Source of the DNA: Polynucleobacter sp. AP-Nino-20-G2
GTDB taxonomy: Bacteria > Pseudomonadota > Gammaproteobacteria > Burkholderiales > Burkholderiaceae
Direction: 5' to 3'
Assembly: GCF_018688235.1 (NCBI RefSeq)
Contig: NZ_CP061313.1
Coordinates: forward strand, 1,622,452 to 1,654,451
Length of the DNA stretch: 32,000 nt
Shown: piece after piece, positions 5,459 to 22,499 of the stretch
Layout of the letters: the number at the start of each line of letters is the position of its first letter
How positions within the stretch are numbered: the first letter of the stretch is position 1
Notes under the pieces: generated by a model
The model's database searches: none
Told to the model about the DNA's origin: nothing
The model's input: the letters and a program-made list of their open reading frames with translations, nothing else
Translations under genes and position numbers: made by a program

Positions 5459-5459
5459 C

Positions 5460-5803: not shown

Positions 5804-5823
5804 AGTATTTCTCCTTATTCCTA

Positions 5824-6549
5824 TTAGATGGTGACTGCTTGACACTGTGACACTATGGGCGCTGCTACATTTGACTTATTTGCGTAGTAGTGCTTCACAA
5901 TTTGCTTGCTGGCATTTAGTACACCCCGACCACTACCCTTGCAAGCAGCCGCCACATCAATAAGCACCTGATCGGGAATGCCCAATACCCCGTAATAACT
6001 AAGCACCCTGCTCATAACAGGCAGCCAATGACTACTAGGTGCCGCAGTAAAATCGACTACATGACAGCGATCAATTACTGCACGATCAATTTTTGATAAA
6101 TTATTGGTTGTCAAAATAAACACTGCATGTTGACTGCCCCCATTCATCGCGGTTTTAAGCGATGGCATATAAGCACCAGTTAAGTTATCCACCTCATCTA
6201 ATACAAAATAGTGAAATGCATCGATGGGTGTGAAGTTACAGCGATTAGCAATACTTACCATCATTTGTGCGTGATTTGACGTAGCAGCAATGTCAAAATA
6301 CTGCGGCAACTGTGCATCTTGTCCGCTATGCGCTTGCTCAATCAAATCGGGCAATATTTTTGCCAAAGCACTTTTGCCAGTCCCCACATCCCCATATAAC
6401 AAAATGCCGTTTTTTCCCGATCCAGGAAAGCCGCCATTTTTAGCAATGCAGTCCTCAATCATCTGCTTCGCTTTTGCATCTTTAAAAACTACATCGCCCA
6501 ATACTTTAGGCTGAAACTTCTCATCAAAATTACTAAAATCAGGTTGCAT
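5824..6549 (-). CDS. AAA+ ATPase, RFC/clamp-loader-like, lacking a collar domain
   Basis: RFC-box-like KFQPKVLGDVV. Walker A GDVGTGKS, Walker B FVLDEVD, sensor-1 ILTTNN, SRC-like IDRC. GGAGG SD. Confidence 0.8.
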   Translation of the reverse strand: MQPDFSNFDEKFQPKVLGDVVFKDAKAKQMIEDCIAKNGGFPGSGKNGILLYGDVGTGKSALAKILPDLIEQAHSGQDAQLPQYFDIAATSNHAQMMVSIANRCNFTPIDAFHYFVLDEVDNLTGAYMPSLKTAMNGGSQHAVFILTTNNLSKIDRAVIDRCHVVDFTAAPSSHWLPVMSRVLSYYGVLGIPDQVLIDVAAACKGSGRGVLNASKQIVKHYYANKSNVAAPIVSQCQAVTI

Positions 6550-6612
6550 AAAACCTCCAATGAATGATTGCTACAGGACAATTAATCCCGCAGCAATCTG
6601 TTTAGTTAAAAA

Positions 6613-7632: not shown

Positions 7633-7656
7633 TTTTACTACTCCTTGTTTGTTAAA

Positions 7657-8037
7657 TTAATGTGTTACTGCTACTGCTGTTACGTCGTCCTGCAAAGTTG
7701 CTACTGCTGCGTTAACTAACGTATCCGTTAAGCTTGCACATTTACGTGTTAAGTACAGTGCAACAATGCATTCGTCCGTCATATGCCCATCTCCATCTAC
7801 TACAAAATCTAATTCTTCTTCCAACTCCGTCAGCATCGTTAGCAACAGCTCTTCTTTATCGCTGCGCTGTTTAATGCTGTCGTAATACTCTTTAACTTCT
7901 TGCATCTGTCTGCAAAACAATATTTCAGCTTCAGCTTCAAAACTTTGCTGCTTGCTTGCAACAATGTTTGCTAAAGCCAGTGCCGCTGCTGTATTACCGC
8001 TTGTTGCTGCGTTTGTGTTTAATCGTGCTGTTTTCAT
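7657..8037 (-). CDS. Hypothetical protein (126 aa), first gene of the minus-strand operon
   Basis: ATG with AAAGGTAG upstream. It ends 24 nt before the next gene. Confidence 0.6.
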   Translation of the reverse strand: MKTARLNTNAATSGNTAAALALANIVASKQQSFEAEAEILFCRQMQEVKEYYDSIKQRSDKEELLLTMLTELEEELDFVVDGDGHMTDECIVALYLTRKCASLTDTLVNAAVATLQDDVTAVAVTH

Positions 8038-8069
8038 TTACTACCTTTCAATATGTGTTTAAAAAAATT

Positions 8070-8327
8070 ACTAAGTGCTGCTTTACTGTTTGTTATTAAA
8101 TTTGCTGCACTATTAGTAGTGCGCTGTGCTGCTAATCCCTGCACTCGCTTAAAGTCAAGCAAGTAGCAGTTTTGTGTTGTTAATGCTTTTTGCATGTAGC
8201 ACCCCCGTGCAAGTTAGTAACTGCGTTAATAAGTCCTGCACAGCAACTACATATAAGTAGTGCTGTACTACGTGAAATTGCGTGTTTAAAGCGACTGATT
8301 TGTTAAAGAGCGGCAGCAGTGCTGCGG
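8070..8327. repeat. Cluster of short GC-rich repeats (GTGCTGC, AGTAGTGC, GTAGCA) in a divergent intergenic region
   Basis: GTGCTGC occurs at about 8076, 8126 and 8319. AGTAGTGC occurs at about 8115 and 8256. AGTAGCAG is at 8162 and TGTAGCAC at 8195. Confidence 0.5.
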
Positions 8328-8409
8328 TATGTAATGAGAATATTCCTGAACACATATGCTTGAAAATTGCTTGTTATAATTAATGCTATAACTATCAATA
8401 GATTTTTTT

Positions 8410-9369
8410 ATGGAAAACCGCAAATTCCGCATCAAAATTAAAAAAACGGGTGGCTATGCACTAAAGCGATGGTGGTTTTATGCGCTAATGGCAAGTGAGA
8501 GTTATGTCTTAGCTCACGCCTTCAGGGAGGGCAGGCTCTCCACGGAGCAGATTGCCAGCCTACCCTGGGACTTCAGTAGAGTCTTGCAAACCTATGACAA
8601 CTTTGGCTGGGTAGGCAATATCACCTTTACCGATTGGCTTAAACGCAAAGATAAGGTGCTATTTAGAACCGAAAAGCAATTGCCGAGCGTTTCTACAATC
8701 ACCCGCATACCCCGTGGTGACGCAGGTGATCCCAATAAGATTATTGATGATGTAATGAAGCATCTTTATGGCACTAGGGATAATCAAAATTTCCCCAATG
8801 CCCTACTTCTATCAATTCCACTAAATCTTTCCAAGCAATCCATCTTTAGGCAAATCGCTCAAAAAATCGATGTTTACAAGCAGTCGCCTAGAAAAGCTAA
8901 CAACCCAGTTGACCTTGAAGTACCGCTATACAGATTTAGAGCAAATAAATTAAAAACTACAGCATTTGACTCTAGCCTTAAGACACTCCATACGAAGATC
9001 CGCAACCATGAGTGGCCGCTTTGGAAAGTAGGTACAAAGGTAAATCTGAATGTAGAGGCGGCGATTGAGATTCGCAAAGCCGAGGCAATGCGAGAAGAGA
9101 TTGAAAGAGCTACGGGAAAGCGACCAAAGCCAGAAGATAGCGCCTATCTTGAAAAAATGACAATGAATACACTGGCGCATAGGCAGATCAAATATGCATT
9201 GCTACTGGCGGAAAATGCTGCTCGAGGAAGATTTCCCAGCATTGACCCAATTGTCGATAAAGACGGAAAGACCATCACATTAAAAATGGATTACCCATTT
9301 ATGAGTGCTGAATACGCAATTGCTGAAGCAGAGTTTTATGAGCGATATCCACAACCTGAAATCGTTTAA
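8410..9369 (+). CDS. Hypothetical basic protein (319 aa)
   Basis: Long intact ORF. No clear SD, so the start is uncertain. No family recognised. Confidence 0.55.
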   Translation: MENRKFRIKIKKTGGYALKRWWFYALMASESYVLAHAFREGRLSTEQIASLPWDFSRVLQTYDNFGWVGNITFTDWLKRKDKVLFRTEKQLPSVSTITRIPRGDAGDPNKIIDDVMKHLYGTRDNQNFPNALLLSIPLNLSKQSIFRQIAQKIDVYKQSPRKANNPVDLEVPLYRFRANKLKTTAFDSSLKTLHTKIRNHEWPLWKVGTKVNLNVEAAIEIRKAEAMREEIERATGKRPKPEDSAYLEKMTMNTLAHRQIKYALLLAENAARGRFPSIDPIVDKDGKTITLKMDYPFMSAEYAIAEAEFYERYPQPEIV

Positions 9370-9378
9370 GACGAATTA
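9359..9378. repeat. Island palindrome copy 3 (AAATCGTTT-A-AGACGAATTA)
   Basis: One arm mismatch. It contains the TAA stop of the plus-strand gene (9367-9369) and directly follows the TAG stop of the minus-strand recombinase as an in-frame TAA. Confidence 0.7.
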
Positions 9379-9951
9379 CTAGATTAGTTCTACTGCTTTA
9401 CGCTTTTGATCGTCGTTGCAGTCTATATAGTGCTGCACACTGGATAACTGTCTGTGTCCACTCAATCCCATGATCACCCTCACCCCAACACCCTTAGCCG
9501 CTAAGTTGGTAATAAAGCTCCTTCTACCCGAATGACTACTAGCCCCTGGAATAGCTGCACGTTGATATAGATAGTGGAAGAACTGAGTGGCTGTATTGGC
9601 ACTAAAGCCATCACTGCCTTTCTTCTGGGAATAAAATAGTTTTTCCCGGGGATCATTGGGGGTATAGATCTTGATATAGGCAGCCAATTCTTTTTTAAGC
9701 TTCTCGCTAATAAACACGGTGCGGGCGTAACCACCCTTCGCTTGCTCTGGGCGCAACATGATCTCATTTTTGATAGCGCCTTCTGCGTCTACTACGTCCG
9801 CAAAACGTAAAGAAGCCATTTCCGCAACACGTAATCCTGCGTAATGTGTAATCAGTAGCATAGCCCTATTTCTAGCGCAATGCTTGCGTGTAGCAATGTG
9901 ATCTAAAACTCTACGTAATTCTTGCGCGGTTAATGTTTTCGCTTGTTTCAT
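9379..9951 (-). CDS. Small tyrosine recombinase (catalytic domain only, 190 aa)
   Basis: Arg-I box HYAGLRVAEMASLRFADV, HSGRRSFITNLA (H-x-x-R), GHRQLSSVQHYI (catalytic Tyr). GGGAGA SD. Confidence 0.85.
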   Translation of the reverse strand: MKQAKTLTAQELRRVLDHIATRKHCARNRAMLLITHYAGLRVAEMASLRFADVVDAEGAIKNEIMLRPEQAKGGYARTVFISEKLKKELAAYIKIYTPNDPREKLFYSQKKGSDGFSANTATQFFHYLYQRAAIPGASSHSGRRSFITNLAAKGVGVRVIMGLSGHRQLSSVQHYIDCNDDQKRKAVELI

Positions 9952-10150
9952 TCTGCAATCTCCCTAAATCAAATAAAAGTCACACATTCAATGTAATTTC
10001 TTATGTGCGTGAAGTCGACCTAAAAAGGTCATCTGATATTTAGTGAGATTTCTTCAATGATCACAATGGTTTAGAGACGATCAGCAGGAAAATATAAGGT
10101 TTTGCGTATTTACTTACATTTACACATCTCAAAGCCAATTACACCCAATT

Positions 10151-10192
10151 GAAGAAAACAGCCGAATTGCGTTTTATCTATGCAATCGGCTG
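10151..10192 (-). terminator. Rho-independent terminator after the 177-aa ORF
   Basis: Minus strand reads CAGCCGATTGC-ATAGATAAAAC-GCAATTCGGCTG followed by TTTTCTTC. Confidence 0.7.
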
Positions 10193-10222
10193 CCATACTA
10201 CTAAATCCAAATATAAACAGCT

Positions 10223-10756
10223 CTAAGCAGCGAGCCTTTGTTTAAGGTCTGCATCGTAGTTTGATGAAAAGTAATCTGGGCTATTGCCAGTCTTTTCCCG
10301 GCATGAGCGCATGGGGAAATGCTCGCTCAACACCAATTCATGCTTATCATCCACAAGCGCCACGGTTAATTGGCAGGTGCGTAAATCCACCGTAACAAAC
10401 CCCATGACCTTGGGCTTTGACATCGCACTATCAAATCGCTTGATCCAGCTGCATAGGATGTGTTCGCCGTGATTGGCGGACTGGACATCTATATTGATTT
10501 TTTGGTAATGGGCAATGACCATTCCCAGCGCCTCCATATCGATATCGGTAGTAGCTGTATGTTGCCACTGGGTAAATGGCACTAGATCGATTAAATACTT
10601 TAAGTGCTGCTGTGGAAGGTCTAAAGTTCCATTAAATACTGCGTTGTAATACATGCCCTTGCCAAAAGTTTTGCCGAACTTTGGGTTGTTATATAAACGC
10701 ACTGCTATTTTTGTTCCTTGTTTTGTTACTTGTTTTGTTATTTGCTTTGTCTCCAT
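10223..10756 (-). CDS. Hypothetical protein (177 aa) with an N-terminal TKQ repeat
   Basis: AGGAGAAAGAG SD. The N-terminus METKQITKQVTKQGTK is encoded by a 12-nt tandem DNA repeat. Confidence 0.65.
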   Translation of the reverse strand: METKQITKQVTKQGTKIAVRLYNNPKFGKTFGKGMYYNAVFNGTLDLPQQHLKYLIDLVPFTQWQHTATTDIDMEALGMVIAHYQKINIDVQSANHGEHILCSWIKRFDSAMSKPKVMGFVTVDLRTCQLTVALVDDKHELVLSEHFPMRSCREKTGNSPDYFSSNYDADLKQRLAA

Positions 10757-10800
10757 CTCTTTCTCCTGATATGGTCTAGTTGCGGGTTGCTTTGTTGCCT

Positions 10801-10945
10801 CTAGTCACAAACCCAGAAAAGAAGTCACTTGTCTGGGTTACTAGTCGCTTCATGCCTTAAGCAGTAGCTAGTAACTAGCAACTAGTTACTTGTAACTTTG
10901 TTTCTTCTTGTTACCTAGTAACCCATAGCAACTCAAAGCAACTCA
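10801..10945. repeat. Iteron-like array of about 10 CTAGTAAC-type 7-8-mers
   Basis: CTAGTCAC, CTAGTCGC, then a period-7 run CTAGTAA/CTAGCAA/CTAGTTA/CTTGTAA (10868-10895), then CTTGTTAC, CTAGTAAC, ATAGCAAC and AAAGCAAC. Confidence 0.6.
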
Positions 10946-11023
10946 CATTTTTATTTATGCCTTCTAGATAAGATCTGAAATTTATTCTTTGGTTTTCGCT
11001 GGGTTTCACAAGATTTCGATCCC

Positions 11024-11057
11024 ATTGCTTATTGATCTAGCTATTGCTTCATTGATC
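11024..11057 (+). promoter_or_regulatory. Direct repeat ATTGCTT(A/CA)TTGATC x2 upstream of the plus-strand gene cluster
   Basis: Two copies of 14-15 nt separated by 5 nt, about 85-118 nt upstream of the ATG at 11142. Confidence 0.35.
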
Positions 11058-11141
11058 CGTTGTTTTTCCATGCCAGATCAGGTCGACCCTTTTGCAGGGC
11101 GACACTATCGTTAAGACTCTACTAACAACAAGGAGTTTTCA

Positions 11142-11585
11142 ATGTCCGTTCTAACAAGTCTTAAATTAATAACAGGTAAGCGCCCGGTATCAGCTAGCCC
11201 AATCGTACTGCGCAGAAACAAGATGGCCAATAAGATTGCTGAGCAGTTGGCACTTTGCGAAGCTCAAAAGTCAGGGCAGCTATACCAACCCAAAGTCTCA
11301 CGCACTTATACAAACAAGCAAACGGGCGAACGCATGACTGTAGACACAGTAAAACGTGTACGTCAGTGGTTTTACATCAGCCCCGAGGGCAAGATCAACT
11401 TAACTCTTAAGTACGGCAGCAAAGTATTACCCCTGAATAAAAAAGGGGCTAATGCAATTGAACTAGCTTCAGGCGATGAGCTCATAGCCACACTGAAGAA
11501 TCTACAGACTGCCGTGCTAAACGGTGATTTAGATGAAGCTATTAATGAAGTAAGCGAGATGACTCGCAATTCATTTAAGAAATGA
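11142..11585 (+). CDS. Hypothetical protein (147 aa)
   Basis: AAGGAG SD 7 nt upstream. No family assigned with confidence. Confidence 0.7.
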   Translation: MSVLTSLKLITGKRPVSASPIVLRRNKMANKIAEQLALCEAQKSGQLYQPKVSRTYTNKQTGERMTVDTVKRVRQWFYISPEGKINLTLKYGSKVLPLNKKGANAIELASGDELIATLKNLQTAVLNGDLDEAINEVSEMTRNSFKK

Positions 11586-11644
11586 TGACCCAGGGCTAGT
11601 TTGCAATCGTGCAACTAGCCCATTTTTAACTTTAGGAGAATTAC

Positions 11645-11791
11645 ATGAATACTTACTCAGCTTACGTCCGTGCCAATGGATTTGTAGTCCAAACCAGAAT
11701 CTGTGCAAACAGCGTTTCAGATGCAATCTTTTTACTCAAAGGCCAATATGGTGCTGATAATTTGGTGCATTTACCTCAGCAAATCGACTAA
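11645..11791 (+). CDS. Small ORF (48 aa) below the ORF-track cutoff
   Basis: AGGAGA SD upstream of the ATG at 11645. Product MNTYSAYVRANGFVVQTRICANSVSDAIFLLKGQYGADNLVHLPQQID. Its stop lies 2 nt before the next ATG, which suggests coupling. Confidence 0.5.
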   Translation: MNTYSAYVRANGFVVQTRICANSVSDAIFLLKGQYGADNLVHLPQQID

Positions 11792-11793
11792 AG

Positions 11794-12156
11794 ATGTCAA
11801 ATTCAGAGTTTGATGCTGCAACGCTTGGCCAATTTACCGGTACTGAGCACTATTACCGCATTAGCCCCAGCACAGTCATTACAGATGGCTGCAAATATCT
11901 AGCTGATGAAGCTGGGGCATATTGGCTAATGGATGCAATAGCTAGTTATCTACCCCAATTTACAGGACGTGAGGAATTTATATCTGCCAAGCTCAACGTG
12001 ACAAGAGGTAGTGCTGAGCTAGCGTTAGATAACGGCAATGGGAAAGTACTTGATCGCCAGCACATTCCATTTACTGACTTCCCCATGCCTACCATTACCC
12101 TCTATGCCTGCTGGAGTGGTGACTTCTGGGTACTGCTACTGCCTAGTGAATACTAG
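11794..12156 (+). CDS. DUF6876-like protein (plasmid/ICE-associated family)
   Basis: QFTGTEHYYR...TDGCKYLADEAGAYWLMDAIAS...LLLPSEY matches my memory of the DUF6876 pattern. The family name is not verified. Confidence 0.6.
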   Translation: MSNSEFDAATLGQFTGTEHYYRISPSTVITDGCKYLADEAGAYWLMDAIASYLPQFTGREEFISAKLNVTRGSAELALDNGNGKVLDRQHIPFTDFPMPTITLYACWSGDFWVLLLPSEY

Positions 12157-12159
12157 TAG

Positions 12160-13572
12160 CTATCGTAAGACTGATGATCTGATTTCTTGCTTAGTGATTT
12201 CTTTTTGAACCTTTTGCAGTACCAACTGGGTCAGTAATAGGCTTATTGCCAGCACGGCAACAATCGTTAAACGTGCCACACTAATTCGCTTCTGCTGAAC
12301 TACAGTTCCTGAGTGATCCCAGGCCACAGGCAAACCATTGTCTAAAGCTTTTTTAGCCTGCCAAGCATTAAATGCCTGCACTAATGGATAAAAAATCATA
12401 AAGGAAAGTGCTTTAGATATCACCAGGTATGCCCTAGACTTTGATTCAACCAAACTCATTGGCTGATAGTTTTTATTAAGCACTCTTATCCCTACCGCCA
12501 ACTTACCTATAGTCGTTTGAAATTTATAAATCATGTAGCTGTCATATAGATACAAGAACAAACACAGCCATAGCAAGCCAGTAATTAACTCTGCAATCAT
12601 CAAAAACATAGTTGCGCTAGATGGCACAATTAAAATCAATAGCAAGCCAGGCAAATCAATCAGCCCCGCCACTAGCCAAACAATAAAAATATCTATCGTC
12701 CTTGCCCACAATCTTGACCAGAAAGTTGCCTGAATCATCTCAGCCTCAACTTTGGACTCGATATCTTTAGCTGGATAGCTTAAGTTTTGCGCAGAAGTAT
12801 CTTGCGCTACTTGGGCCCCAGCAGTTTGGAAGCCTTCTTTTAGCCAACGCATAACAAAACGAAGTAATAAAAACCCAAGCCAGCTAATAATGGAAATCAG
12901 CAAGGCAATCAAGAGATCGTCAATGAATGTATCGCTCCAATTATTTAAGCGCACAAATGCCCGAATGACTCCTATAGAGAACACCAAACCTACAGTTGCA
13001 ATTTGCACACGTCGCCACCCTGGATGCCTCTCAACCAAGAGACCAGACTGAACTAGTCGACCCACAAAGAATGCAACAAGCGGAATTAAGCCAATAGCCA
13101 AAAAGCCGAATAGCAATGCAGTCCAATATCTTTTAAAAATATTTCCAAGAGTCTCGCCAACTGATAAAGGTGCATCTACGCAGCCAAAATAATTAAATAA
13201 CTCCATTCGCGCAAAGTAACAGGTCGAATATGAATTGCTATAGAGGTAAGGATTAGCATTACAGTACTGGAAATTCTTTGCATACTTCCAACCAGGCCAC
13301 TGCTCAGTTTGCTCACCATATAGGGCAGCTATTTCAAGCGTGAAGTCACTGCCGTCTGGATATCTGTTAATCGCAGTACAAAAACTAGATTTATGCTGCT
13401 CAACCACTTTAGCTTGGTACTGGTCGGACTCTTTATTCCAATTAATTAGCCCTAAAACAGTCATGCCAACGGAAAAGATCACGGCCATTACTAGCGCAAT
13501 GCTAAAACCGATTTTGAGTCGACTTAAAGCCACTTCTTTAGTTATAAGCGGTTTACTTGAATTTGGAGTCAT
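12160..13572 (-). CDS. Polytopic membrane protein with a C-terminal RDD-like domain
   Basis: 470 aa with many hydrophobic helices. There is a Cys-rich segment after TM1 and the RDD-type stretch RLWARTIDIFIVWLVAGLID. Confidence 0.7.
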   Translation of the reverse strand: MTPNSSKPLITKEVALSRLKIGFSIALVMAVIFSVGMTVLGLINWNKESDQYQAKVVEQHKSSFCTAINRYPDGSDFTLEIAALYGEQTEQWPGWKYAKNFQYCNANPYLYSNSYSTCYFARMELFNYFGCVDAPLSVGETLGNIFKRYWTALLFGFLAIGLIPLVAFFVGRLVQSGLLVERHPGWRRVQIATVGLVFSIGVIRAFVRLNNWSDTFIDDLLIALLISIISWLGFLLLRFVMRWLKEGFQTAGAQVAQDTSAQNLSYPAKDIESKVEAEMIQATFWSRLWARTIDIFIVWLVAGLIDLPGLLLILIVPSSATMFLMIAELITGLLWLCLFLYLYDSYMIYKFQTTIGKLAVGIRVLNKNYQPMSLVESKSRAYLVISKALSFMIFYPLVQAFNAWQAKKALDNGLPVAWDHSGTVVQQKRISVARLTIVAVLAISLLLTQLVLQKVQKEITKQEIRSSVLR

Positions 13573-13583
13573 AGGGAAAGTAT

Positions 13584-13600
13584 ATCGTTTTTAGAACGAT
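13584..13600. repeat. Variant palindrome ATCGTT-TTTAG-AACGAT
   Basis: Same arm sequence as the island palindrome but with a 5-nt spacer. It lies 12 nt upstream of the RDD gene start, in a divergent intergenic region. Confidence 0.35.
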
Positions 13601-13660
13601 CAACATCATGCTCTACGGCAATTACTGAAATCTTATAAATATAAGAAATGGAGAGTGCAA

Positions 13661-14128
13661 ATGAGATTGAATGAATTTTTAAGTGATGATGAGTGGATTC
13701 GTTTGCAACGAATTATGTACACCAGTACCTTGGAAGCGTTAAACACCTATCAAAAACAACGTGCAGCGCAGTATGTCCCAAAGCCCCTTGCTGCAAAGTT
13801 AAAACCCGAGATAGCAAAAAAGGCACGTACCCTAGCAGCACGTAAAGCCAAGCGACCACCCCAAGTTGCAGCACCCAAACCTTTACCCAAACCCAAGCCA
13901 CTACCCCTGCCTGCTACAAGTGGCACCCCAGCGTATCAACCTATCAAAGCACCCACCCCACTACCTGCAGGCACTAGAAGAGTGGCAGCAAGAAACCAAT
14001 CCAAGCCCCCACCACAAAGTGCCAAATTACCGCCCAGTATGCGTGAATTACCAAGCGGTCAAGTAGCTATGATCCATGCCAAAACCGACCCGATAGCGCA
14101 GAAGAATATGGACAAAGAACGAGGCTAG
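13661..14128 (+). CDS. Hypothetical Pro/Lys-rich protein (155 aa; start moved from GTG 13655 to ATG 13661)
   Basis: GGAGAG lies 6 nt upstream of the ATG at 13661. Low-complexity region KPLPKPKPLPLPATSGTP. Confidence 0.5.
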   Translation: MRLNEFLSDDEWIRLQRIMYTSTLEALNTYQKQRAAQYVPKPLAAKLKPEIAKKARTLAARKAKRPPQVAAPKPLPKPKPLPLPATSGTPAYQPIKAPTPLPAGTRRVAARNQSKPPPQSAKLPPSMRELPSGQVAMIHAKTDPIAQKNMDKERG

Positions 14129-14215
14129 AGAGCCGGCAGAGCGGTGGTCCTGGGGATCTATATAACGCAAAAAAGTGCGCTACCGGCACGACAGAGGCTA
14201 TGCGAAATTAGATGC

Positions 14216-15619
14216 TCAAGATTTCTTCTTCTTGAGAGCTTCTTGCTGCTGCTTAAGTTTTTTAGATTGATATACCTCGGGCACTTCAATCTTATTAAAC
14301 AGCGCCCCTCGTGCTTTAGGTGCCCGTACATTTTCAGCAATCGCCTCACCCGTAGCCCTGTCATAGTGCTTGGCAATAATCCCAGGTGAATTACCCAACT
14401 GCAAAGCAATGTCTCGTAGCGGTACCCCATCCATATTCAGTACAGTAGTGGTGTGGGCACTGCGGAAACTATAAAACACCCGCTTCTTACCACTATTGGG
14501 ATCACGCAGCAAATTATGCTCATCCAAAAAGCGATCAAACATATGGTGTGATGTACCCAGCTTGCCACCACTGCGGGTTCTAAAGACATAACCGGGATCA
14601 TTGCTCTCAGTCAGCTTCTTCAAGGTGGTTTTACCATCTGGGTAATTACGAGCCACGATCTCTTTTAGCACCTTGAAGGTTTCATCAAAGCCATTGGCGT
14701 CCCGATCCTTGGTCTTGCCATATACCGATAAGGTCACTGTAGGCTGCCACTCAATTTGCTCAATGAGATTGCCCTCTTCGTCATATTCTTCAATGGGCTT
14801 TTGGGATGATTCATCTTCAGCCAAGAAACCTTCTGCATTGGTCTCTTGGGGCTGCATATCCACAATCTTGGTCTTGTACTTGATGTTTTTCCATTGCAAA
14901 TTCAGCAGCTCTTTACCTGGCCTAGCCCCTGTATCAATCAAGATGCGGACATAGTCATAAAGGAGTTCACGCTGCTCACGCTTGGCTTCAGATCTGCCCC
15001 GTAGAATCCAGGCTGGGAAGTTGGCCAAAATGGCATTGACCTCTTTTATGCTAAAGGTTGCGTAGTTTTCACCCTTGCGCCCTGTGGTCTCTAGCTCGGG
15101 CTTCATGGCTCTAGTCATAAAGCCGCGAATAATGGCCTCTTCAAAGATGTAGTTCAGCGTAACATTATGTTTTCGTACTGTGCTGTAGGCAGGCTCTTTA
15201 CCCATTAGCTCAGCACGATCAAGCTCATATTGCTTGAGTGCTGCGTAATCAATCTTGTTGATGTTCTTATTACCCAGGCAAGGGATTAAGAAATCATCAA
15301 TGATGCGCTTGTACACACTGTAAGAAACTGGGGCTTCACCTTTTTCCGCCTTGTCATCCATGCGTTTCTTGGTTAGGCGAGCGATATCCTTGAACTTCTT
15401 GGTAACTACGGGAATATTGGCTTCTTTTTTAAGCTCAGCGATGCGTTTGAGATCTTTGGCCTTGTCGATGGCCTTTTCGCGATCTCGTAATCTAGTGGAA
15501 GCGATTAGCCACTTGTCATCCACCTTGTAGCGGCATTGCCAAACCGTACTGTTTGGGCGCTTATAGAGAACGAGCTCACGCGGGTAGATTTCGTAGGTGC
15601 TGTCGAGCTTTTCAGGCAT
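14216..15619 (-). CDS. int: Tyrosine integrase (phage/island type, 467 aa)
   Basis: N-terminal arm/SAM-like region. ILIDTGARPGKELLNLQW (Arg I), FYSFRSAHTTT, LQLGNSPGIIAKHYDR (catalytic Tyr). It has the same orientation as the upstream tRNA gene. The track start is a GTG; the ATG is at 15619. Confidence 0.9.
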   Translation of the reverse strand: MPEKLDSTYEIYPRELVLYKRPNSTVWQCRYKVDDKWLIASTRLRDREKAIDKAKDLKRIAELKKEANIPVVTKKFKDIARLTKKRMDDKAEKGEAPVSYSVYKRIIDDFLIPCLGNKNINKIDYAALKQYELDRAELMGKEPAYSTVRKHNVTLNYIFEEAIIRGFMTRAMKPELETTGRKGENYATFSIKEVNAILANFPAWILRGRSEAKREQRELLYDYVRILIDTGARPGKELLNLQWKNIKYKTKIVDMQPQETNAEGFLAEDESSQKPIEEYDEEGNLIEQIEWQPTVTLSVYGKTKDRDANGFDETFKVLKEIVARNYPDGKTTLKKLTESNDPGYVFRTRSGGKLGTSHHMFDRFLDEHNLLRDPNSGKKRVFYSFRSAHTTTVLNMDGVPLRDIALQLGNSPGIIAKHYDRATGEAIAENVRAPKARGALFNKIEVPEVYQSKKLKQQQEALKKKKS

Positions 15620-15625
15620 CACAAC

Positions 15626-15654
15626 ACTTTAAATTTTTAAAACGATTACGTCAA
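15626..15654 (-). promoter_or_regulatory. Candidate sigma70 promoter for int (TTGACG-N17-TAAAGT)
   Basis: The -10 ends 6 nt before the int ATG, implying a very short or absent leader. The spacer contains a half-site AATCGTTTTAAAA of the island palindrome. Confidence 0.3.
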
Positions 15655-15676
15655 CGGATTTTGTAGAAGCGAAATA

Positions 15677-16177
15677 TTAAGAGTCGCTTCCCTTTTCGAG
15701 AAACTGAAACCATTTACTTAAATTAAGCTGTATGACCAAAAACGAAGCAATCAACATGCTCATTGAAAATGCCGCTATAGCCAAGCAGAAAGCTGTAGAC
15801 CATGAATTCATCAATAAGCCAACTGTAAATTGAGTTGATGCCGACAATAGGCAAAAAAATACAGAAAATGAAAGTACCCTGCTAAGTCTTTTAAGTGGTC
15901 CATATTGGGTCAACTTTGGATTTATGGTCCTTAGCTCTTCAACCTTCTCAATGTATTGCTTATTGTCATAAAGACTTTCTTTTATTTTAATGAGTATCCC
16001 CGTTTTCAAGGACAGCAAAAAACCACCCATAGTAAGAAAGCCGGTGAACAAGCTGGCACGTAAATTCTTTTCATAGAACAAGTTCACATCGCCAAAATAA
16101 TATTGAACCAATGTAAAAACTAGAATCCCAACCAAAGCTGGAACACCGTATAAAGAAAAGTTAGCTATTGCTTTCAA
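15677..16177 (-). CDS. Small four-TM membrane protein (166 aa), second gene of the orphan module
   Basis: TTG start 2 nt after the upstream TAA, with AAGGG 6 nt upstream. Hydrophobic segments at about residues 7-28, 41-63, 101-122 and 128-151. Charged loop KESLYDNKQYIEKVEELR. Confidence 0.7.
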   Translation of the reverse strand: MKAIANFSLYGVPALVGILVFTLVQYYFGDVNLFYEKNLRASLFTGFLTMGGFLLSLKTGILIKIKESLYDNKQYIEKVEELRTINPKLTQYGPLKRLSRVLSFSVFFCLLSASTQFTVGLLMNSWSTAFCLAIAAFSMSMLIASFLVIQLNLSKWFQFLEKGSDS

Positions 16178-16179
16178 TC

Positions 16180-17094
16180 TTAACCCTTAATAGGAGTGCT
16201 AAAAAAAGGAAGTTTACTTTTATATGTAGATTGCATTTTTTTCATAAACCAAGAGTCATTAAAGTCTTGGGGATGAAGACTCTTCATTTTCTCCGCAATC
16301 TCGTCAAACTCAAATTCTGCAAATACCTCAAGATTGTCTTCAAGAAAAATCACCTGCTGTTCTCCGTGTTGATCCTCCCCTACTAACTTGGCTTTATCAA
16401 ATAACTTTCCAGCTACAGCCTTTTTAATGGCTGAAACTACTGAAGAAAGGCTTGCTTGCTTATCGAATCCATAGCTCTGGCTTACCCTGGAAGCCATACC
16501 AGATAATGGTGTAAGACTGGGCTCATCCACATTCAAAGTCGCAACAGTGAAATCAAAAGACTTCACTCTAGCCATGTTGATTAGCAACTTTTCAAAATTT
16601 TCTTTTTTACAGATATAGTTCCAGTCAAATGTATCGTTATATTTTTCTTTGATGGCCTTTTTATCTTTTTCCTTTTTAGCAGCCTCTAACTCCCTATTGC
16701 AAATAGATTTTGAAAATTCAGCGAACTTCTTACGGAACATAAATCCCAGCGTATTTAATGCGCAAGAATGATAGTAGTGCTGATAAAGCCCCCTCCCTGT
16801 TTTAGAATTGACTATAAAAAAATTAAATTCGGCTAACTCAGAATTCGGAGATACGTCTCTTGAATTTATTTCAATCTCCCCATCCTTTTCCATCAACTCA
16901 ATAAACTGCCTGATGTCTTTTGTAGTTATAACAAGACCAGAGTAATAGCCATCTTTTGACTGAACATATACGAATCTTTTAAAGCCACCAAATTCATAAC
17001 CTTTAATTGGATTTTCAACCAAATAATCAAGAAACACTCCCAATGGCACCTGACTGCCAGTCCGAAATTCAACGCCGTGTAACTTAACCTTCAT
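16180..17094 (-). CDS. Unknown soluble protein (304 aa from ATG 17094; 308 aa if TTG 17106), first gene of the orphan module
   Basis: Long intact ORF in very AT-rich DNA. K/E-rich linker ELEAAKKEKDKKAIKEKY. I see no Walker, nuclease or recombinase motif. Confidence 0.75.
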   Translation of the reverse strand: MKVKLHGVEFRTGSQVPLGVFLDYLVENPIKGYEFGGFKRFVYVQSKDGYYSGLVITTKDIRQFIELMEKDGEIEINSRDVSPNSELAEFNFFIVNSKTGRGLYQHYYHSCALNTLGFMFRKKFAEFSKSICNRELEAAKKEKDKKAIKEKYNDTFDWNYICKKENFEKLLINMARVKSFDFTVATLNVDEPSLTPLSGMASRVSQSYGFDKQASLSSVVSAIKKAVAGKLFDKAKLVGEDQHGEQQVIFLEDNLEVFAEFEFDEIAEKMKSLHPQDFNDSWFMKKMQSTYKSKLPFFSTPIKG

Positions 17095-17160
17095 ATTTAG
17101 ATCCAATTAACTTATGTGATTATCATTTTATGTCTGAGCTTGTTATTTTTAATAATTTTT

Positions 17161-17194
17161 ATAAACAAAAGCCCCAGCTATCTCTAACTGGGGC
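17161..17194 (-). terminator. Rho-independent terminator after the tRNA
   Basis: Minus strand reads GCCCCAG-TTAGAGATAG-CTGGGGC followed by TTTTGTTTAT, 10 nt after the tRNA CCA end. Confidence 0.8.
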
Positions 17195-17244
17195 TTTGCT
17201 TTTCTGGTGGGCCCACCAGGACTTGAACCTGGGACCAAAGGATT

Positions 17245-17499
17245 CCGGTTTGTGTAGCTTTCACTACTCCCTGGACTATGCCTTCATCATATTGATCGCT
17301 CAACTTAGATGGGTGCCGTCTAGTCTCTACACGTTCAACAATACTTTCGCATTGAAGCTTCGCTCGGCGTTGCCATATTCGTTTAAAACGATTTGTGTAC
17401 TTAGTAGCAAATACAACAATTCGTTTAAACGTCTTTAGGTTTCTCCGAATTTGACACCATCCCTTACACAGTTTCCACGTGTAAGGCACAACTTACGCT
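17245..17499 (-). ncRNA. Group I intron (Azoarcus tRNA-Ile type, IC3-like), 255 nt, no ORF
   Basis: It is inserted right after the anticodon CAU and ends in G. Blocks match my memory of the Azoarcus intron: GTGCC..AAGGGATGGTGTCAAATTCGG.GAAACCTAA, TATGGCAACGCCGAGC, AAGCTTC, GTGTAGAGACTAGACGGCACCCA.CTAAG. There is an 8-bp P2-like stem CCTTACAC/GTGTAAGG with a GAAA-containing loop. Confidence 0.88.
17377..17434 (-). repeat. Two inverted copies of the island palindrome forming a peripheral intron hairpin
   Basis: Minus strand reads GACGTTTAAACGAATTGT...ACAAATCGTTTTAAACGAAT. The arms pair over about 16 bp and lie between the conserved GAAACCTAA and TATGGCAACGCC blocks. Confidence 0.7.
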
Positions 17500-17695
17500 A
17501 TGAGTCCTCTGCTCTAACCAACTGAGCTATAGGCCCTAAAACTTCACATTACTTGCCGCACTACTTCTGCACTCACTAGGCCAGTAATTAGGTCTAAAAA
17601 GTGTAGAAGCACTGTAGAAGCAATTTTTACTACTTTTACTACACTTAACTGCTTGATTTAATTAAGTAATTTTAATAAATCAAAAAACTTAATTA

Positions 17696-17736
17696 GATTA
17701 TGAGTCCTCTGCTCTAACCAACTGAGCTATAGGCCC
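17696..17736 (-). pseudogene. Truncated intron-less 5' fragment of tRNA-Ile(CAU) (positions 1-41)
   Basis: 37/37 nt are identical to exon 1, followed by AATC, the first 4 nt of exon 2, with no intron. Similarity then stops. It starts 14 nt after the rpoD stop. Confidence 0.8.
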
Positions 17737-17749: not shown

Positions 17750-20290
17750 TCAATCCTCTTCGAGGAAGGTCTTGAGTTTGTCACTGCGACTTGGATGGCG
17801 CATCTTTCTCAGGGCCTTGGCTTCGATCTGACGAATACGCTCACGTGTAACGTCAAACTGCTTACCAACTTCTTCGAGAGTGTGATCTGTACTCATCTCA
17901 ACACCGAAGCGCATACGCAATACTTTTGCTTCGCGCGGTGTTAATGAATCCAATACGTCCTTCACGACATCGCGCATCGAGTCGTGCAATGCAGCTTCAG
18001 CAGGAGCCAATGTATTGTTATCTTCAATGAAATCTCCTAGATTGGAGTCTGCATCATCGCCAATCGGGGTTTCCATGGAGATAGGCTCTTTAGCGATCTT
18101 CATGATCTTGCGAATCTTGTCCTCAGGAATTTCCATCTTGAGCGCCAAGGTTGCGGCATCTGGCTCATGACCAGTTTCTTGCAAGATCTGACGACTAATA
18201 CGATTCATCTTATTGATCGTCTCAATCATATGAACTGGAATGCGGATCGTACGTGCTTGATCAGCAATGGAGCGGGTAATCGCTTGACGAATCCACCAAG
18301 TTGCATAAGTAGAGAACTTGTAACCACGGCGGTATTCAAACTTATCTACCGCCTTCATCAAACCGATATTACCTTCTTGAATTAAGTCCAAGAACTGCAA
18401 ACCACGGTTGGTGTATTTCTTAGCAATCGAGATTACCAAACGTAAGTTGGCTACCGTCATTTCACGCTTTGCTTCACGCGCACGCTTCTCACCCGCGATC
18501 ATTTGCTTGTTCACTTCTTTTAATTCTGGAAGTGGCAATACCACGCGCGTTTGAATATCAATTAACTTCTGTTGCAACTCTTGAATCGCTGGAACGTTAC
18601 GTTGCAATAATGCTGTGTAAGGCTTGTTTTCTTTAAGGAGCTTGGTAGTCCACTCTAGATTCATGGACATCTTTGGGAAGTCTTTCAATACTTCACCACG
18701 ATTTACACCAACTTTATCTACCAACAAGCTCACAATGCCGCGCTCGAGTTTCCATACCTGATCTACCTGTGAACGCATGGTGTCGCATAACTTCTCAACA
18801 CTCTTTGCAGTCAAGCGGAAACCAAGCAATTCGCCACGAATCGCTTCTTGTGCCTTGATATAAGCTGGGCAGTTATAACCCTCTTTATCAAATGCACGGC
18901 GCATCTTGTCAGCCTGGGCACGAACAATCGCAAATTTCTCTAAAGAGATTTGCTTCAACTCTTCTAATTGCTTAGCATTGGCTGTGGCTGCGCCACCGCC
19001 ACCTCCGCCACCACCTTCATCTTCACCGCCATCTTCATCACCCTCTTCGGCATCCGGGTCAACTTCTGGCTCTTCAGGTCCAAGCTTAATATCTTCCGCA
19101 TTTGGATCAACCAATCCGTCTACGAATTGGTCGATCTCCATCTCACCGCTAGCAATCTTGTCTACATTGCCTAAGATCTCAGCGATCGTTACAGGGCAAG
19201 CAGCCAAAGCCATCACCATATCTTTAAGGCCGGCTTCAATCTTCTTCGCAATGACGATCTCGCCTTCGCGAGTCAGCAGGTCTACCGTACCCATTTCGCG
19301 CATATACATACGCACTGGATCGGTTGTACGCCCGAACTCTGAATCCACCGTAGAAAGAGCGGCCTCCGCTTCTTCTTCCGCCTCTTCTTCAGTAGTTGCA
19401 GCAGAAGTATTCTCGTTTAACAAGAGCGTTTCAGCATCAGGAGCTTGCTCGTAAACAGTAATGTTGATGTCGTTCAACAATCCGATCAAAGTCTCTAATG
19501 CGTCAACATCAGACAACTCATCAGACATTACGTCATTCATTTCGCCATGAGTTAAGTAACCCTTGGACTTACCCATCTTGATCAATGTCTTCAGACGAGT
19601 ACGACGCAACTCTTGCTGCTCTTCAGAACCTAATTGTTGCGCTGCGAATTCTTTTAGAAGTGCTTTTTCTTTTGCCTTACGCTCGCGCGCTTTCTGACGA
19701 TCCGTCAATACTGGCTCAGCACCTTCCGCAGGTGCATCAGCCTTTGGCTTGCGACCCTTTTTAACTTCCTCAGTAGCGACCGCTTCGACATCAACTTCAA
19801 CTTCCGCAGCTTTTTTGCCTTTGGTTTCTTTAACTTCTTTTGCAGGTTTTGCTTCCTTCACCACCTCAGCTTTGGGCGCCGCAGCCTTACCTTTTTTAGG
19901 AGCTTCAACTTTCTCAGCCTTCGCTGGCGCCTTTGCAGGAGCCTTAGCAACCGGCTTGGCAGGCGCTTTAGCTGGCTTAGCAGCAGCCTTAACTGGCTTG
20001 GATGGTGTTTTCGCTTTCGCTACTGGTTTAGCTGGAGCCTTTGCTTTCGGTGCTGGTTTTGCTGGCGCTTTAGCTGGCTTGGCTGGTGTTTTCGCTTTCG
20101 CTACTGGTTTAGCTGGAGCCTTTGCTTTCGGTGCTGGTTTTGCTGGCACTTTAGCTGGCTTAGCAGCAGCCTTAACTGGCTTGGCTGGTGTTTTCGCTTT
20201 CGCTACTGGTTTAGCTGGAGCCTTTGCTTTTGCTACTGGCTTCGCTGCTGCCTTGACTGGTTTAGCTGGTTTTTTCTTGATATTTGGCAT
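17750..20290 (-). CDS. rpoD: RNA polymerase primary sigma factor RpoD with a ~230-aa Lys/Ala/Pro-rich N-terminal extension
   Basis: Regions 2-4 are canonical ([57 protein letters not shown]). The N-terminus is made of [13 protein letters not shown]-type repeats. Confidence 0.97.
19960..20250. repeat. Coding tandem repeat (81- and 102-nt units) inside the rpoD 5' region
   Basis: GGTGTTTTCGCTTTCGCTACTGGTTTAGCTGGAGCCTTTGCTTTCGGTGCTGGTTTTGCTGGC recurs at 20004 and 20085. A third unit starts at 20187 and shares its first 44 nt before diverging. Confidence 0.85.
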
Positions 20291-20514: not shown

Positions 20515-22464
20515 TTAAGAGAATTTCAGTCTTTCGCCCAATTCACGATATCGAGCTCGATCCTGCTCTGTAGCAGTACTTGCTGCAATCTTTTGAGCGA
20601 TTTCGGTCATTTCGGTTTTGAGGTGGTTTAGTTCGAGCTTTTTGAAGGCACCTTCCAGGTCAGCAACCGCCCCCTCGAGATCGAGATCAGAACCCATTAC
20701 CCGCTTTCGGAGAACTTCATACAAAGGGGCTAACTCACTGCGAGATAGCTGCTCCTGAAACAAGGCAAATGCACCAGCACCCACTGTAGGGGGTTTTCCA
20801 TTCTCGCCAGGAATTAACTCCACCAAATCACATTGGGCCAATAGATCTTTCATTAATTCCAATGCTTTTGCAGAGCGCAACTCCGATGCCTGCAATGCCA
20901 AAGCTCGCTTATTGGGATCCAAGGCTTTACCCAAATGCGGAAACTGAATCAACACTCGCAACATCTGCTCCGCTAAATCAGTTGGCGCTTGAGGGGGTGC
21001 GATATTTTGTATGGCCACCCTTTTCGCTGAGCCTTTGGATGTTTGCCAAGGAGCGCCCTGCGTTCGATTACCCGAATTCGCCTGAACAAAATTGGGCGCG
21101 CGTTGATTGACATTCGAATAAGACCCCTGTTGAACTGGAGCAGGCACTACAGTCAATCCACAGAAAGCCTCTAGTTCGGACGGGGTGGAGTTCGTGCGTA
21201 TCGCCAGCTCTCGCAAGATTTGCGTACGCAAAGCAATCGGCGGCATTGACAACAACAAAGGCTTGGCCGCATGGTGGGTTTGCGCCCTACCTTCAGGCGT
21301 AGTGAGCTCATGCCCTTGACTGACGATCTTGAAAAAGAAGCTTGAAAGTGACATCGCCTCTTTGATGACTTTCTCAAATGCAGGCGCACCATAGGCACGA
21401 ACATAACTATCAGGATCATGCTCTGTGGGCAAAAAGAGGAAGCGAATTTCCTTGTCATCCGACATCAAGGGCAAGCAGGCTTCAAGTGCGCGTTGCGCGG
21501 CACGCTGACCAGCTGAGTCACCATCAAATGAGAAAACAATGCGATCCGTTTGACGCAACAACATACGGACGTGATTCGCAGTACAGGCAGTACCCAATGT
21601 TGCCACTGCATTAGGGAAACCCAATTGCGCCAGCGCGACAACATCCATATAACCTTCACATACCAAGACATACTCTTGCGCACGAATCGCTTGTCTTGCT
21701 TCGAATAAACCGTAAAGCGTATTGCCCTTAGAGAACAGCGGGGTCTCGGGAGAATTTAAATACTTTGGCTCACCTTGATCCAAGATCCGTCCACCAAAGC
21801 CAATCGTTTGACCTTTTGGATTGCGAATCGGAAACATAATCCGGTCACGAAAGCGATCGTAGCGTCTAGCTGTTTGATTGCCCTCGCTTTGCTCGCTCTG
21901 AATGAGTAAGCCACCCTCTAATAAAGTCTTAGCCACTTCATCGTTGGCATAAGTACCAAAAACTGCTTCAAGACCTTGCCAACCATCGGGTGCGTAACCT
22001 AGCGCATAGCGCTTCGCTATCTCACCAGTCAAGCCACGACCTTTGAGATACTCCACTGCGCGCGGGGCAACTTTCAGTTGCTGGCGATACCAATCTGCAG
22101 CAGCGCTCATCACCTCACTTAAAGCCATCGTCTGCTGTTGGCGCGCCACATCATTTGCGGTGCGCTCTTCGCGAGGAACATCTAAGCCAGCAGAGCGAGC
22201 CAAATCTTCAATAGCATCTACATAACCAAGGCCGGAGTACTCCATGAGAAAGCTGATGGCTGATCCATGTGCTCCACAGCCAAAGCAGTGATAAAACTGT
22301 TTGGTTGGCGAAACTGAAAATGAAGGAGACTTCTCTGAATGAAAGGGGCACAAACCTTGATAGTTCGCACCCGCTTTTTTTAACTTCACGTGCTGCCCAA
22401 CCACATCCACGATGTCAACCCGATTTAATAAATCGGCAATGAAGGATTGAGGAATGAGAGCCAT
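20515..22464 (-). CDS. dnaG: DNA primase DnaG (start moved from TTG 22470 to ATG 22464)
   Basis: Zn-finger CPFHSEKSPSFSVSPTKQFYHCFGCGAHG, TOPRIM EGYMDV and DGDSAGQRAA. It sits in the rpsU-dnaG-rpoD context. Confidence 0.95.
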   Translation of the reverse strand: MALIPQSFIADLLNRVDIVDVVGQHVKLKKAGANYQGLCPFHSEKSPSFSVSPTKQFYHCFGCGAHGSAISFLMEYSGLGYVDAIEDLARSAGLDVPREERTANDVARQQQTMALSEVMSAAADWYRQQLKVAPRAVEYLKGRGLTGEIAKRYALGYAPDGWQGLEAVFGTYANDEVAKTLLEGGLLIQSEQSEGNQTARRYDRFRDRIMFPIRNPKGQTIGFGGRILDQGEPKYLNSPETPLFSKGNTLYGLFEARQAIRAQEYVLVCEGYMDVVALAQLGFPNAVATLGTACTANHVRMLLRQTDRIVFSFDGDSAGQRAAQRALEACLPLMSDDKEIRFLFLPTEHDPDSYVRAYGAPAFEKVIKEAMSLSSFFFKIVSQGHELTTPEGRAQTHHAAKPLLLSMPPIALRTQILRELAIRTNSTPSELEAFCGLTVVPAPVQQGSYSNVNQRAPNFVQANSGNRTQGAPWQTSKGSAKRVAIQNIAPPQAPTDLAEQMLRVLIQFPHLGKALDPNKRALALQASELRSAKALELMKDLLAQCDLVELIPGENGKPPTVGAGAFALFQEQLSRSELAPLYEVLRKRVMGSDLDLEGAVADLEGAFKKLELNHLKTEMTEIAQKIAASTATEQDRARYRELGERLKFS

Positions 22465-22499
22465 CAGCAATCGATGAGGCTTAAGAAACGATCGCTAGC

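Follow-up and report, generated by a model that had tools for sequence, protein, structure and literature searches.

Why should a complete, intron-split tRNA gene and a 41-nucleotide (nt) piece of the same tRNA lie side by side behind rpoD? The question is raised by a stretch of 32,000 nt from Polynucleobacter sp. AP-Nino-20-G2 (contig NZ_CP061313.1, positions 1,622,452 to 1,654,451), here called the window, to which all coordinates refer unless a related locus (numbered with the prefix L) is named. An earlier interpretation of the same DNA, made by a model and called here the sequence-only reading, had described a tRNA-Ile(CAU) gene split by an Azoarcus-type self-splicing group I intron. Most probably, this functional-looking split gene is not the host's original but the first gene of a genomic island that split an intron-less tRNA-Ile2 copy, of which the short piece would be the remnant at one island end.

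The split gene is laid out as follows:

17536-17500, minus strand: exon 1 of tRNA-Ile2(CAU), 37 nt, ending in the anticodon CAT (ARAGORN, intron mode); standard positions 1-36 plus one extra D-loop base
17499-17245, minus strand: group I intron of the Azoarcus type (IC3; 'Ile2.5Ug'), 255 nt, AGCG...ACCGG, with the terminal G at 17245
17244-17205, minus strand: exon 2 of tRNA-Ile2, 40 nt including the encoded CCA, the sole copy in the window
17168-17197, minus strand: terminator-like hairpin and T-run directly 3' of the tRNA (consensus scan)

The sequence-only reading had arrived at the same parts, two exons of 37 and 40 nt that join into a perfect cloverleaf and a 255-nt insert that starts right after CAU and ends in G; ARAGORN in intron mode gave exactly this split, with the same boundaries, and folded the spliced 77-nt product as a tRNA(cat). 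Within the anticodon loop, the intron follows the anticodon immediately on its 3' side (CTCAT-intron-AA). A default tRNA search of the window returned 0 genes because the tool has no intron mode. The exons are identical at 76-77 of 77 positions to those of Polynucleobacter and other Burkholderiales relatives. The spliced tRNA is of the elongator and not the initiator type, with G1-C72 paired and an anticodon stem (GAGGA/TCCTT) without the three G-C pairs found in initiators. Across 5,426 E. coli genomes, the gene that resembles it best over its full length carries a CAT anticodon and is annotated as tRNA-Ile (84.4% identity by BLAST, 65 of 77 positions in a global alignment); the E. coli elongator tRNA-Met agrees with it at 59 of 77 positions. 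The pairs C4:G69, C5:G68 and G27.U43, which we take to be TilS determinants, are all present. Judged by its sequence, the spliced tRNA is an Ile2-type tRNA(CAU). The pre-tRNA would self-splice through GTP attack at the U.G pair of helix P1 followed by exon ligation at the terminal G, and the resulting 77-nt tRNA, after lysidine modification, would read AUA. The gene looks functional, is predicted to be spliced, and is presumably the only tRNA-Ile2 gene of the genome; dependence of AUA decoding on splicing becomes more plausible because the host copy at the locus is disrupted.

Intron_gpI (RF00028) was the only Rfam family matched in the 32-kb window, at 17504-17252 on the minus strand, over the full model (1-253), with 54.7 bits (E=2e-11) and a gathering score of 50 bits. 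We wrote the Azoarcus-type structure (P1, P2, P3, P4, P5, P6, P6a, the pseudoknot helix P7, P8, P9.0 and P9) onto the window sequence and followed it through an alignment of 83 distinct related introns; a terminal G was a condition for inclusion in this set, so that the window intron alone demonstrates it directly. Across 52 pairs in 13 helices, 97.1% of the cells hold standard pairs, compared with 26-42% in a control in which the partners were slid by 1-3 columns. Compensatory changes on both sides occur in 27 of the 52 pairs, the covariation measure is 0.323 versus 0.02-0.06, and 0 of 500 shuffles reached any of the observed measures. The covariation is carried by P2, P5, P6, P6a, P8, P9.0 and P9; P3 and most of P7 are invariant and are therefore neutral toward the structure. 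P1 is invariant as well, the internal guide sequence GTG (17489-17487) pairing with the exon CAU through C-G, A-U and, at the splice site, U.G in 83 of 83 sequences, just as the sequence-only reading had supposed for the window. The core blocks that it had quoted are present and mostly invariant or nearly so over the 83 introns, and its central claim, an Azoarcus-type intron splitting tRNA-Ile(CAU), is upheld by the Rfam match above the gathering score, by the P1-P9 fold with its P3/P7 pseudoknot, and by the likeness to tRNA-Ile(CAT).

The window intron is 91-94% identical, over aligned columns, to those of its closest relatives. Intron lengths among the relatives cluster at 198-226 nt, and only a few reach 253-255 nt. 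The excess, estimated by the sequence-only reading at about 50 nt over some 205 nt, measures about 45 nt and comes down to a single hairpin:

17433-17378, minus strand: extension of the P5 hairpin, ~45 extra nt, recognized as a gap in 79 other introns

This extension is common to L098, L122 and L142 and folds into a single hairpin of -17 to -19 kcal/mol. One of its arms (17377-17395) matches, at 18 of 19 positions, near-palindromic 20-mers (AAATCGTTTrArACGAwTTA) that recur between genes of the island at 4969-4988, 5459-5478 and 9359-9378, and the same co-occurrence is seen in the related island of L142. A regulator of the island could use these 20-mers as operators, or they could be where the P5 insertion came from. 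The two open reading frames (ORFs) that overlap the intron (17184-17489, minus strand; 17130-17438, plus strand) had no Pfam match at E<=1, in agreement with the claim that no homing endonuclease is encoded; the intron, with no endonuclease ORF recognized in or beside it, would thus fall outside the class of mobile introns driven by homing endonucleases.

The closest comparison is the Azoarcus intron of 205 nt, which is also found in the anticodon loop and splices itself in vitro (PMC13168695); the BH72 sequence is outside the aligned loci. Both introns interrupt tRNA-Ile2(CAU) immediately 3' of the anticodon, use a U.G splice-site pair with the guide sequence GUG and a terminal G, and share the P1-P9 architecture, GAAA loops in L2 and L9, and the lack of an ORF. 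The window intron differs in its length of 255 nt, owing to the P5 extension of ~45 nt, in a compensated C-G to U-A change in the receptor-like motif of P8, and in its setting, an island-borne gene in a Polynucleobacter-like host; its self-splicing is predicted.

Such introns, called rare in the sequence-only reading, proved to be common in Betaproteobacteria. In IMG/VR, 18 stretches contain the core block GTAGAGACTAGACGGCACC, and among GTDB species genomes at least 120 stretches do; the genome hits come mostly from Betaproteobacteria (Polynucleobacter, Methylophilaceae, Oxalobacteraceae, Rhodocyclaceae and Neisseriales), and one genome often has several. Among 142 extracted stretches, 110 contained an intron-split tRNA, 91 of them typed as CAU by ARAGORN. 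Williams (2020) had catalogued 5,292 intron-split tRNA genes, with Ile2.5Ug as one of the four classical bacterial tRNA intron types. The window intron is a further member of a well-known type, ordinary for its lineage, with a peripheral insertion. The same core block occurs in viral or proviral contigs of IMG/VR (L001-L021), in some cases inside tRNA clusters; L001, for instance, has an intron-split tRNA(CAU) followed by tRNA-Leu. Some of the interrupted genes in IMG/VR were typed by ARAGORN as Leu(taa), Lys(ctt), Gln(ttg) or Pro(cgg), in part probably through boundary errors.

The key to the origin of the gene is the short piece upstream of it, together with the spacer between the two:

17736-17700, minus strand: exon-1 fragment, an exact second copy of exon 1, on the host side of the proposed attL
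17704-17698, minus strand: crossover core CTCATAA, overlapping the end of the fragment, which brings the host side of the proposed attL to 17736-17698
17537-17697, minus strand: island side of the proposed attL (P' arm, spacer), with a hairpin, an IHF-like site and tandem 11-mers
17658-17646, minus strand: IHF-like site AATCAAGCAGTTA, ~45 nt after the core, common to the spacers
17621-17601, minus strand: tandem 11-mers GCTTCTACAgtGCTTCTACAC, proposed arm-type integrase sites

The fragment begins 13 nt past the rpoD stop codon and runs on from CAT with AATC, which is the intron-less junction, whereas exon 2 occurs once in the window, with no second copy. Accordingly, the sequence-only reading was right that the window holds one intact gene and a 41-nt piece, but the piece is no stray relic: it looks like the attL of an integrated island. 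A fragment is found 180-250 nt upstream of the intact gene in 38 of the 110 intron loci, from Burkholderiaceae, Methylophilaceae, Oxalobacteraceae, Rhodocyclales, Neisseriales and two gammaproteobacterial families, and each fragment matches exon 1 of its own lineage and extends 2-7 nt beyond the intron site. The tandem 11-mers (GCTTACACAcc GCTTACACAC; in the window, GCTTCTACAgt GCTTCTACAC) are kept across families in spacers that are otherwise unrelated. Other origins of this region were considered and rejected. A consensus scan of the spacer for a sigma-70 promoter or terminator element found nothing convincing; a decayed intron copy, brought to mind by a similar length and by an AAGAAAG vaguely like the intron start, is not collinear with the intron and has no Rfam match; and derivation from the 3' end of a donor rpoD, as in aberrant homing, shows no resemblance by eye. 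In Polynucleobacter sinensis (L025), three exon-1 copies stand in series (2261-2297, 2494-2530 and 2725-2761), that is, two fragment-plus-spacer units precede the intact gene, a pattern that suggests repeated integration or unequal crossing-over.

Paralogous copies of the intron-tRNA within a genome show what the spacer belongs to. They are homologous from 'TCAT' through the spacer and the gene to ~60 nt beyond it, lie 10-34 kb downstream of the rpoD-linked copy, and have the same orientation, as in tandem arrays. In the copies that are not linked to rpoD, the place of exon 1 in front of the spacer is taken by a hairpin (GGGCTTCTG-CTCTCATAA-GAAAGAAGCCC) that presents CTCATAA, and a second pair of 11-mers lies ~75 nt further upstream, such that 11-mers flank the core on both sides. 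This order of arm sites, core and arm sites is, as far as the motifs tell, the layout of an intact attP. In the attP-like junctions the 7-nt core stands by itself, and exon sequence does not extend beyond 2-7 nt.

If the fragment is attL, a reciprocal junction consisting of the left arm of attP, CTCATAA and the host's exon 2 is therefore predicted. At least 120 metagenome contigs contain such a junction, TCTKYT-CTCATAA-TCCTTTGGTCC, with 124 junctions among them. In 94 of the 124, exon 2 extends in full to CCA, a terminator hairpin follows it in the examples inspected, and the P-arm 11-mers lie upstream, whereas exon 1 was present within 220 nt upstream in none of the 124. The split genes therefore had no intron, and both of their halves were displaced. 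Of the two ends that tRNA sequence in direct orientation should mark in an island of this kind, the window shows the left one, with its exon-1 fragment, but not the right one; both junction types are documented in relatives.

We assembled a second set of loci by searching with the integrase protein instead of the intron, and this set is therefore unbiased for the intron. It comprises seven element types (L142, L143/L144, L146-L148, L269/L270, L271/L272, L273/L274 and L275), and an intron-split tRNA(CAU) lies beside the integrase in all seven, usually directly upstream. Most types follow one order: a host gene, usually rpoD, the exon-1 fragment, CTCATAA, a spacer with the IHF-like site and 11-mers, the tRNA, and the integrase. 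The fragment arrangement is seen in L142, L143, L146, L269, L273 and L275; no full host fragment is visible in L144, L270, L271/L272 and L274, and L144, 34 kb downstream of L143 on the same contig, is a spacer-tRNA-integrase unit without exon 1. In L273 and L275, the sequence of the host fragment differs from the exon 1 of the element. The closest relative, L142 from Polynucleobacter sp. MWH-Spelu-300-X4 (CP061294, with the island at about 1.431-1.452 Mb), has an integrase 87% identical to that of the window, the same attL, and a 253-nt intron. An Azoarcus-type intron is present in three of the seven types, and the other four have a different group I-like intron, which sits between U33 and C34 of the island-borne tRNA(CAU) gene and, in three loci, matches RF00028 with 29-30 bits (E 1.6e-5 to 8e-4), below the gathering score. 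The second intron, 243-254 nt long, is located at:

L146, 8993-9239
L271, 4607-4860
L273, 3703-3954
L275, 4678-4920

The mature tRNA of L275, a locus in a metagenome-assembled genome of Nitrosomonas, is identical to that of the window at 77 of 77 positions and is split by this other intron.

The island and its candidate integrases occupy these positions in the window:

4987-17204, at least: genomic island body, its right end (attR) lying outside the window
14216-15622, minus strand: Int468, tyrosine recombinase, 468 amino acids
9379-9951, minus strand: 190-amino-acid ORF with the catalytic domain Phage_integrase (E=3e-25), without N-terminal domains

The same gene set in L142 puts the extent of the island to at least ~4987. 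On the other side, similarity to other Polynucleobacter loci ends at about 17165, and the GC content dips to 0.36 at 16-17 kb. The AlphaFold (AF2) model of Int468 (mean confidence score pLDDT 81.9) has as its top Foldseek matches the Tn1549 Int, XerH, lambda Int and Cre, all with probability 1.0, and includes an N-terminal strand-plus-helix domain that, by eye, resembles arm-binding domains. Among 38 homologs, 34 match Phage_int_SAM_3 and 8 match the catalytic domain Phage_integrase; homologs are named integrase or tyrosine-type recombinase in their source records, and the motifs TGARPGKE, GKT and KHY are conserved. In many loci, the homolog lies downstream of the intron-tRNA on the same strand, in two of them 81 nt after the tRNA. 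By its modelled fold, Int468 would be the tyrosine recombinase of the island. An equivalent of the smaller ORF, of ~189 amino acids, stands beside the Int468 homolog in L142, L143, L147, L269, L271, L273 and L275, and the two proteins may work together. No relatives of Int468 were found in IMG/VR, and there is therefore no evidence that the element is a phage.

The course of events that we propose starts with the tyrosine integrase, which would insert the island at CTCATAA of an intron-less host tRNA-Ile2 gene just downstream of rpoD. Integration would leave the host's exon 1 as a 5' fragment (attL, 17736-17698) and, by analogy with relatives, CTCATAA plus the host's exon 2 at the far end (attR, outside the window), where the expected sequence for this island is arm 11-mers-CTCATAA-TCCTTTGGTCCC...CCA. 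To replace the lost function, the island would bring a complete gene of its own, intron included, ~160-200 nt from the attP core. The island would presumably also be able to excise.

Several observations weigh against this account. The window fragment and the exon 1 of the element are identical and thus inseparable by sequence here. The attR search targeted the commoner Polynucleobacter type, in which AAGAAAGAAGCCC follows the core, and not the type of the window, in which TCTAATTAAG follows it, and the window itself contains no attR, that is, no further copy of exon 2, the core or the arm motif and no second cluster of arm sites. Int468 itself scores below the Pfam threshold (17.4 versus 27.1 bits), and its sequence profile had no match in the PDB. 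It lies 1.6 kb from the tRNA in the window, where there is also a second integrase-like ORF, and either protein may therefore be the one that acts. Finally, P4 of the window intron contains an A.G mismatch.

The mismatch is one reason to ask whether the split gene is a dead copy, in which either this mismatch or the P5 insertion abolishes splicing while another tRNA reads AUA. The Rfam score is barely above the threshold (54.7 against 50), the analysis covered the window, and splicing is a prediction. However, 39 of the 83 related introns likewise have no standard pair at the same P4 position, four genomes keep the P5 extension as a hairpin, and the core helices and catalytic-core blocks are intact and identical to those of relatives. 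The perfect cloverleaf, the encoded CCA and the terminator also speak against decay, and the host copy at the locus is disrupted, so that selection should maintain the intron-bearing one; we consider a dead copy highly improbable. A native, vertically inherited intron-containing gene, with the 41-nt piece as a decayed tandem duplicate unrelated to the island, would account for the identity of the window fragment to exon 1 and for the intron-containing genes that stand 42-160 nt after rpoD, without any fragment, in several Betaproteobacteria (L101, L044, L095, L112, L113 and L057). It does not account for a fragment that ends in the intron-less junction (CAT+AATC), for tandem 11-mers and an IHF-like site common to unrelated spacers of other families, or for a spacer-plus-gene unit that recurs elsewhere behind an attP-like core instead of exon 1. 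The host fragments of L273 and L275, which differ from the exon 1 of the adjacent gene, and the predicted attR in at least 120 contigs disfavour it further, and we regard it as very unlikely. An aberrant homing event, in which a break was repaired with homology on the exon-2 side only and joined illegitimately on the exon-1 side, would duplicate exon 1 together with the upstream flank of the donor. Such illegitimate repair of double-strand breaks has reportedly been seen with the td intron of phage T4, and it would likewise yield exon 1 with a few bases of exon 2, a foreign flank and an intron-containing gene. We give this scenario hardly any credence: no endonuclease ORF was found inside the intron or close to it, the junction invariably falls at CTCATAA, with arm motifs conserved on both sides of the core, the integrase is consistently adjacent, and the reciprocal exon-2 junction exists, which one-sided repair would not be expected to produce.

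A different kind of alternative concerns what the intron does for the island. By splitting the CTCATAA/anticodon-stem target in the island's own tRNA-Ile2, it might protect the att site, stopping recombination between attP and the tRNA gene 200 nt away and blocking later integrations. The intron-split tRNA(CAU) of all seven integrase-anchored element types fits this idea, as do the two different introns (one interrupting the loop after nt 36, the other after U33), the identical mature tRNA that L275 and the window share with different introns, and the use of intron-less genes as targets seen at the attR junctions. Full immunity to the integrase is contradicted by three or four junctions consisting of the P arm, CTCAT, a complete intron and exon 2, without exon 1:

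L032, minus orientation, ~2685
L037, ~1993
L071, ~136
L106, minus orientation, ~1215 (the possible fourth case)

Genes with the nt-36 type of intron have thus recombined at the core, either by integration into them or by deletion between attP and the adjacent tRNA of the element. Moreover, an intron at nt 36 does not disrupt CTCAT(A) or the left half-site, and intron-containing genes occur at native sites without islands, such that hitch-hiking alone could explain the association. Protection as the explanation is, in our judgement, unlikely; partial protection may nevertheless be kept as a weak possibility, and the U33 type, which destroys the core, may fit it better.

Compared with the tRNA-integrating islands of the Islander/TIGER type (PMC4383910), the element shares a tyrosine integrase, crossover in the anticodon loop, tRNA fragments at the ends, the formation of tandem arrays, and an attP that spans a few hundred bp and contains repeated arm motifs. 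Among Islander islands, the fragment is a 3' one in 3,760 of 3,919 cases and a 5' one in 159 (PMC4383910). The difference lies in how the target is restored: a canonical attP carries a tRNA fragment that regenerates it, whereas here there is a complete, separate, intron-containing gene, and both host halves are displaced, exon 1 at attL and exon 2 at attR. No attP fragment that would restore the disrupted gene was found, only the 7-nt core in the attP-like junctions, and the island is therefore a variant and not a canonical member of this group. A possible kin is the 'tycheposon' fGI-3 of freshwater and marine Methylophilaceae, which, in its published border description, starts at a 'tRNA-Met(cat)' and contains a tyrosine recombinase (PMC10872708, ISME J 2024). 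The likeness to fGI-3 is one of borders: Methylophilaceae loci such as L107, L064, L143 and L269 have the same border, a CAU tRNA downstream of rpoD. By contrast, in that article the word 'intron' has 0 occurrences, no disrupted host copy or replacement gene is described, and the tRNA is labelled Met. Randau and Soll's proposal, as cited in PMC4390854, holds that archaeal tRNA genes are shielded from integrating elements by being disrupted or by containing introns, and likewise links an interruption of the anticodon loop with site-specific integration at the same sequence; the protection of the att site considered above would be its counterpart in bacteria. In our case, however, the interrupted gene belongs to the element and not to the defended host, the interruption is of the self-splicing group I ribozyme type, and it does not fully prevent recombination, as the three or four junctions above testify. 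A literature search for links between group I introns and islands, attP or tycheposons found nothing relevant, many papers in subscription journals being beyond its reach. The intron type, tRNA-integrating islands and an island bordering a 'tRNA-Met(cat)' are thus known already; the link between intron and island may be new.

The neighbourhood of the island in the window includes the following host genes:

17750-20290, minus strand: rpoD, flanking attL (NCBIfam RpoD, 885 bits)
20515-22470: dnaG (NCBIfam DnaG, 470 bits)

The order of rpoD followed by tRNA(CAU) is conserved across Betaproteobacteria. The rpoD ORF of the window encodes 846 amino acids, and the RpoD family model matches it only from residue 213; the gene was called at 840 amino acids in L142, 876 in L146, and 636-653 in Methylophilaceae-like loci. 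There is a long N-terminal extension of RpoD in this lineage. By Pfam and PHROGs, the genes of the island include ORF308 (phrog_2802), ORF166, Int468, an RDD protein, DUF6876, DUF6641 and an AAA protein. Past the part of the island common to L142 lie genes for a large molybdopterin oxidoreductase (1613-4093, minus strand) with a Rieske_3 domain and for a small Rieske protein (4109-4627, minus strand) with a twin-arginine translocation (TAT) signal, a pair that resembles the arsenite oxidase AioA/AioB; these AioA/AioB-like genes may be island cargo. A different small element looks to be present in L049 (minus orientation, 2162-2457 and 5238-5319), where a 2.8-kb insert directly behind the intron-tRNA is bordered by an 82-nt direct repeat, 100% identical, that consists of the last 42 nt of the intron plus exon 2. 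The same pattern recurs in L111, and the att site of this element would include intron sequence.

What, then, does the island mean for the intron? Quite possibly, although we put this forward tentatively, a widespread island family of Betaproteobacteria and some Gammaproteobacteria spreads endonuclease-less introns by cutting the intron-less tRNA-Ile2 gene of the host and installing a split copy, which leaves the host dependent on splicing. Once the junction has decayed, what stays downstream of rpoD could be a 'native-looking' gene with an intron. In a stronger form of the proposal, either of two unrelated introns would be selected because, by interrupting the anticodon loop, it lowers recombination between attP and the element's own tRNA gene. 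If the proposal holds, AUA decoding in the host would require ribozyme splicing until the island is lost. The scatter of endonuclease-less group I introns among bacterial tRNA genes is poorly explained, and the island suggests a concrete route by which the intron may spread; the same mature tRNA is found in different bacterial families, behind different host fragments, split by either intron. Because it brings a whole gene, such an island can insert itself into the interior of a tRNA gene with no requirement for a compatible hybrid tRNA, which could widen its host range. Finders of tRNAs or islands that ignore group I introns miss or mislabel such genes, as the 'tRNA-Met(cat)' in the published border description of fGI-3 (PMC10872708) appears to illustrate.

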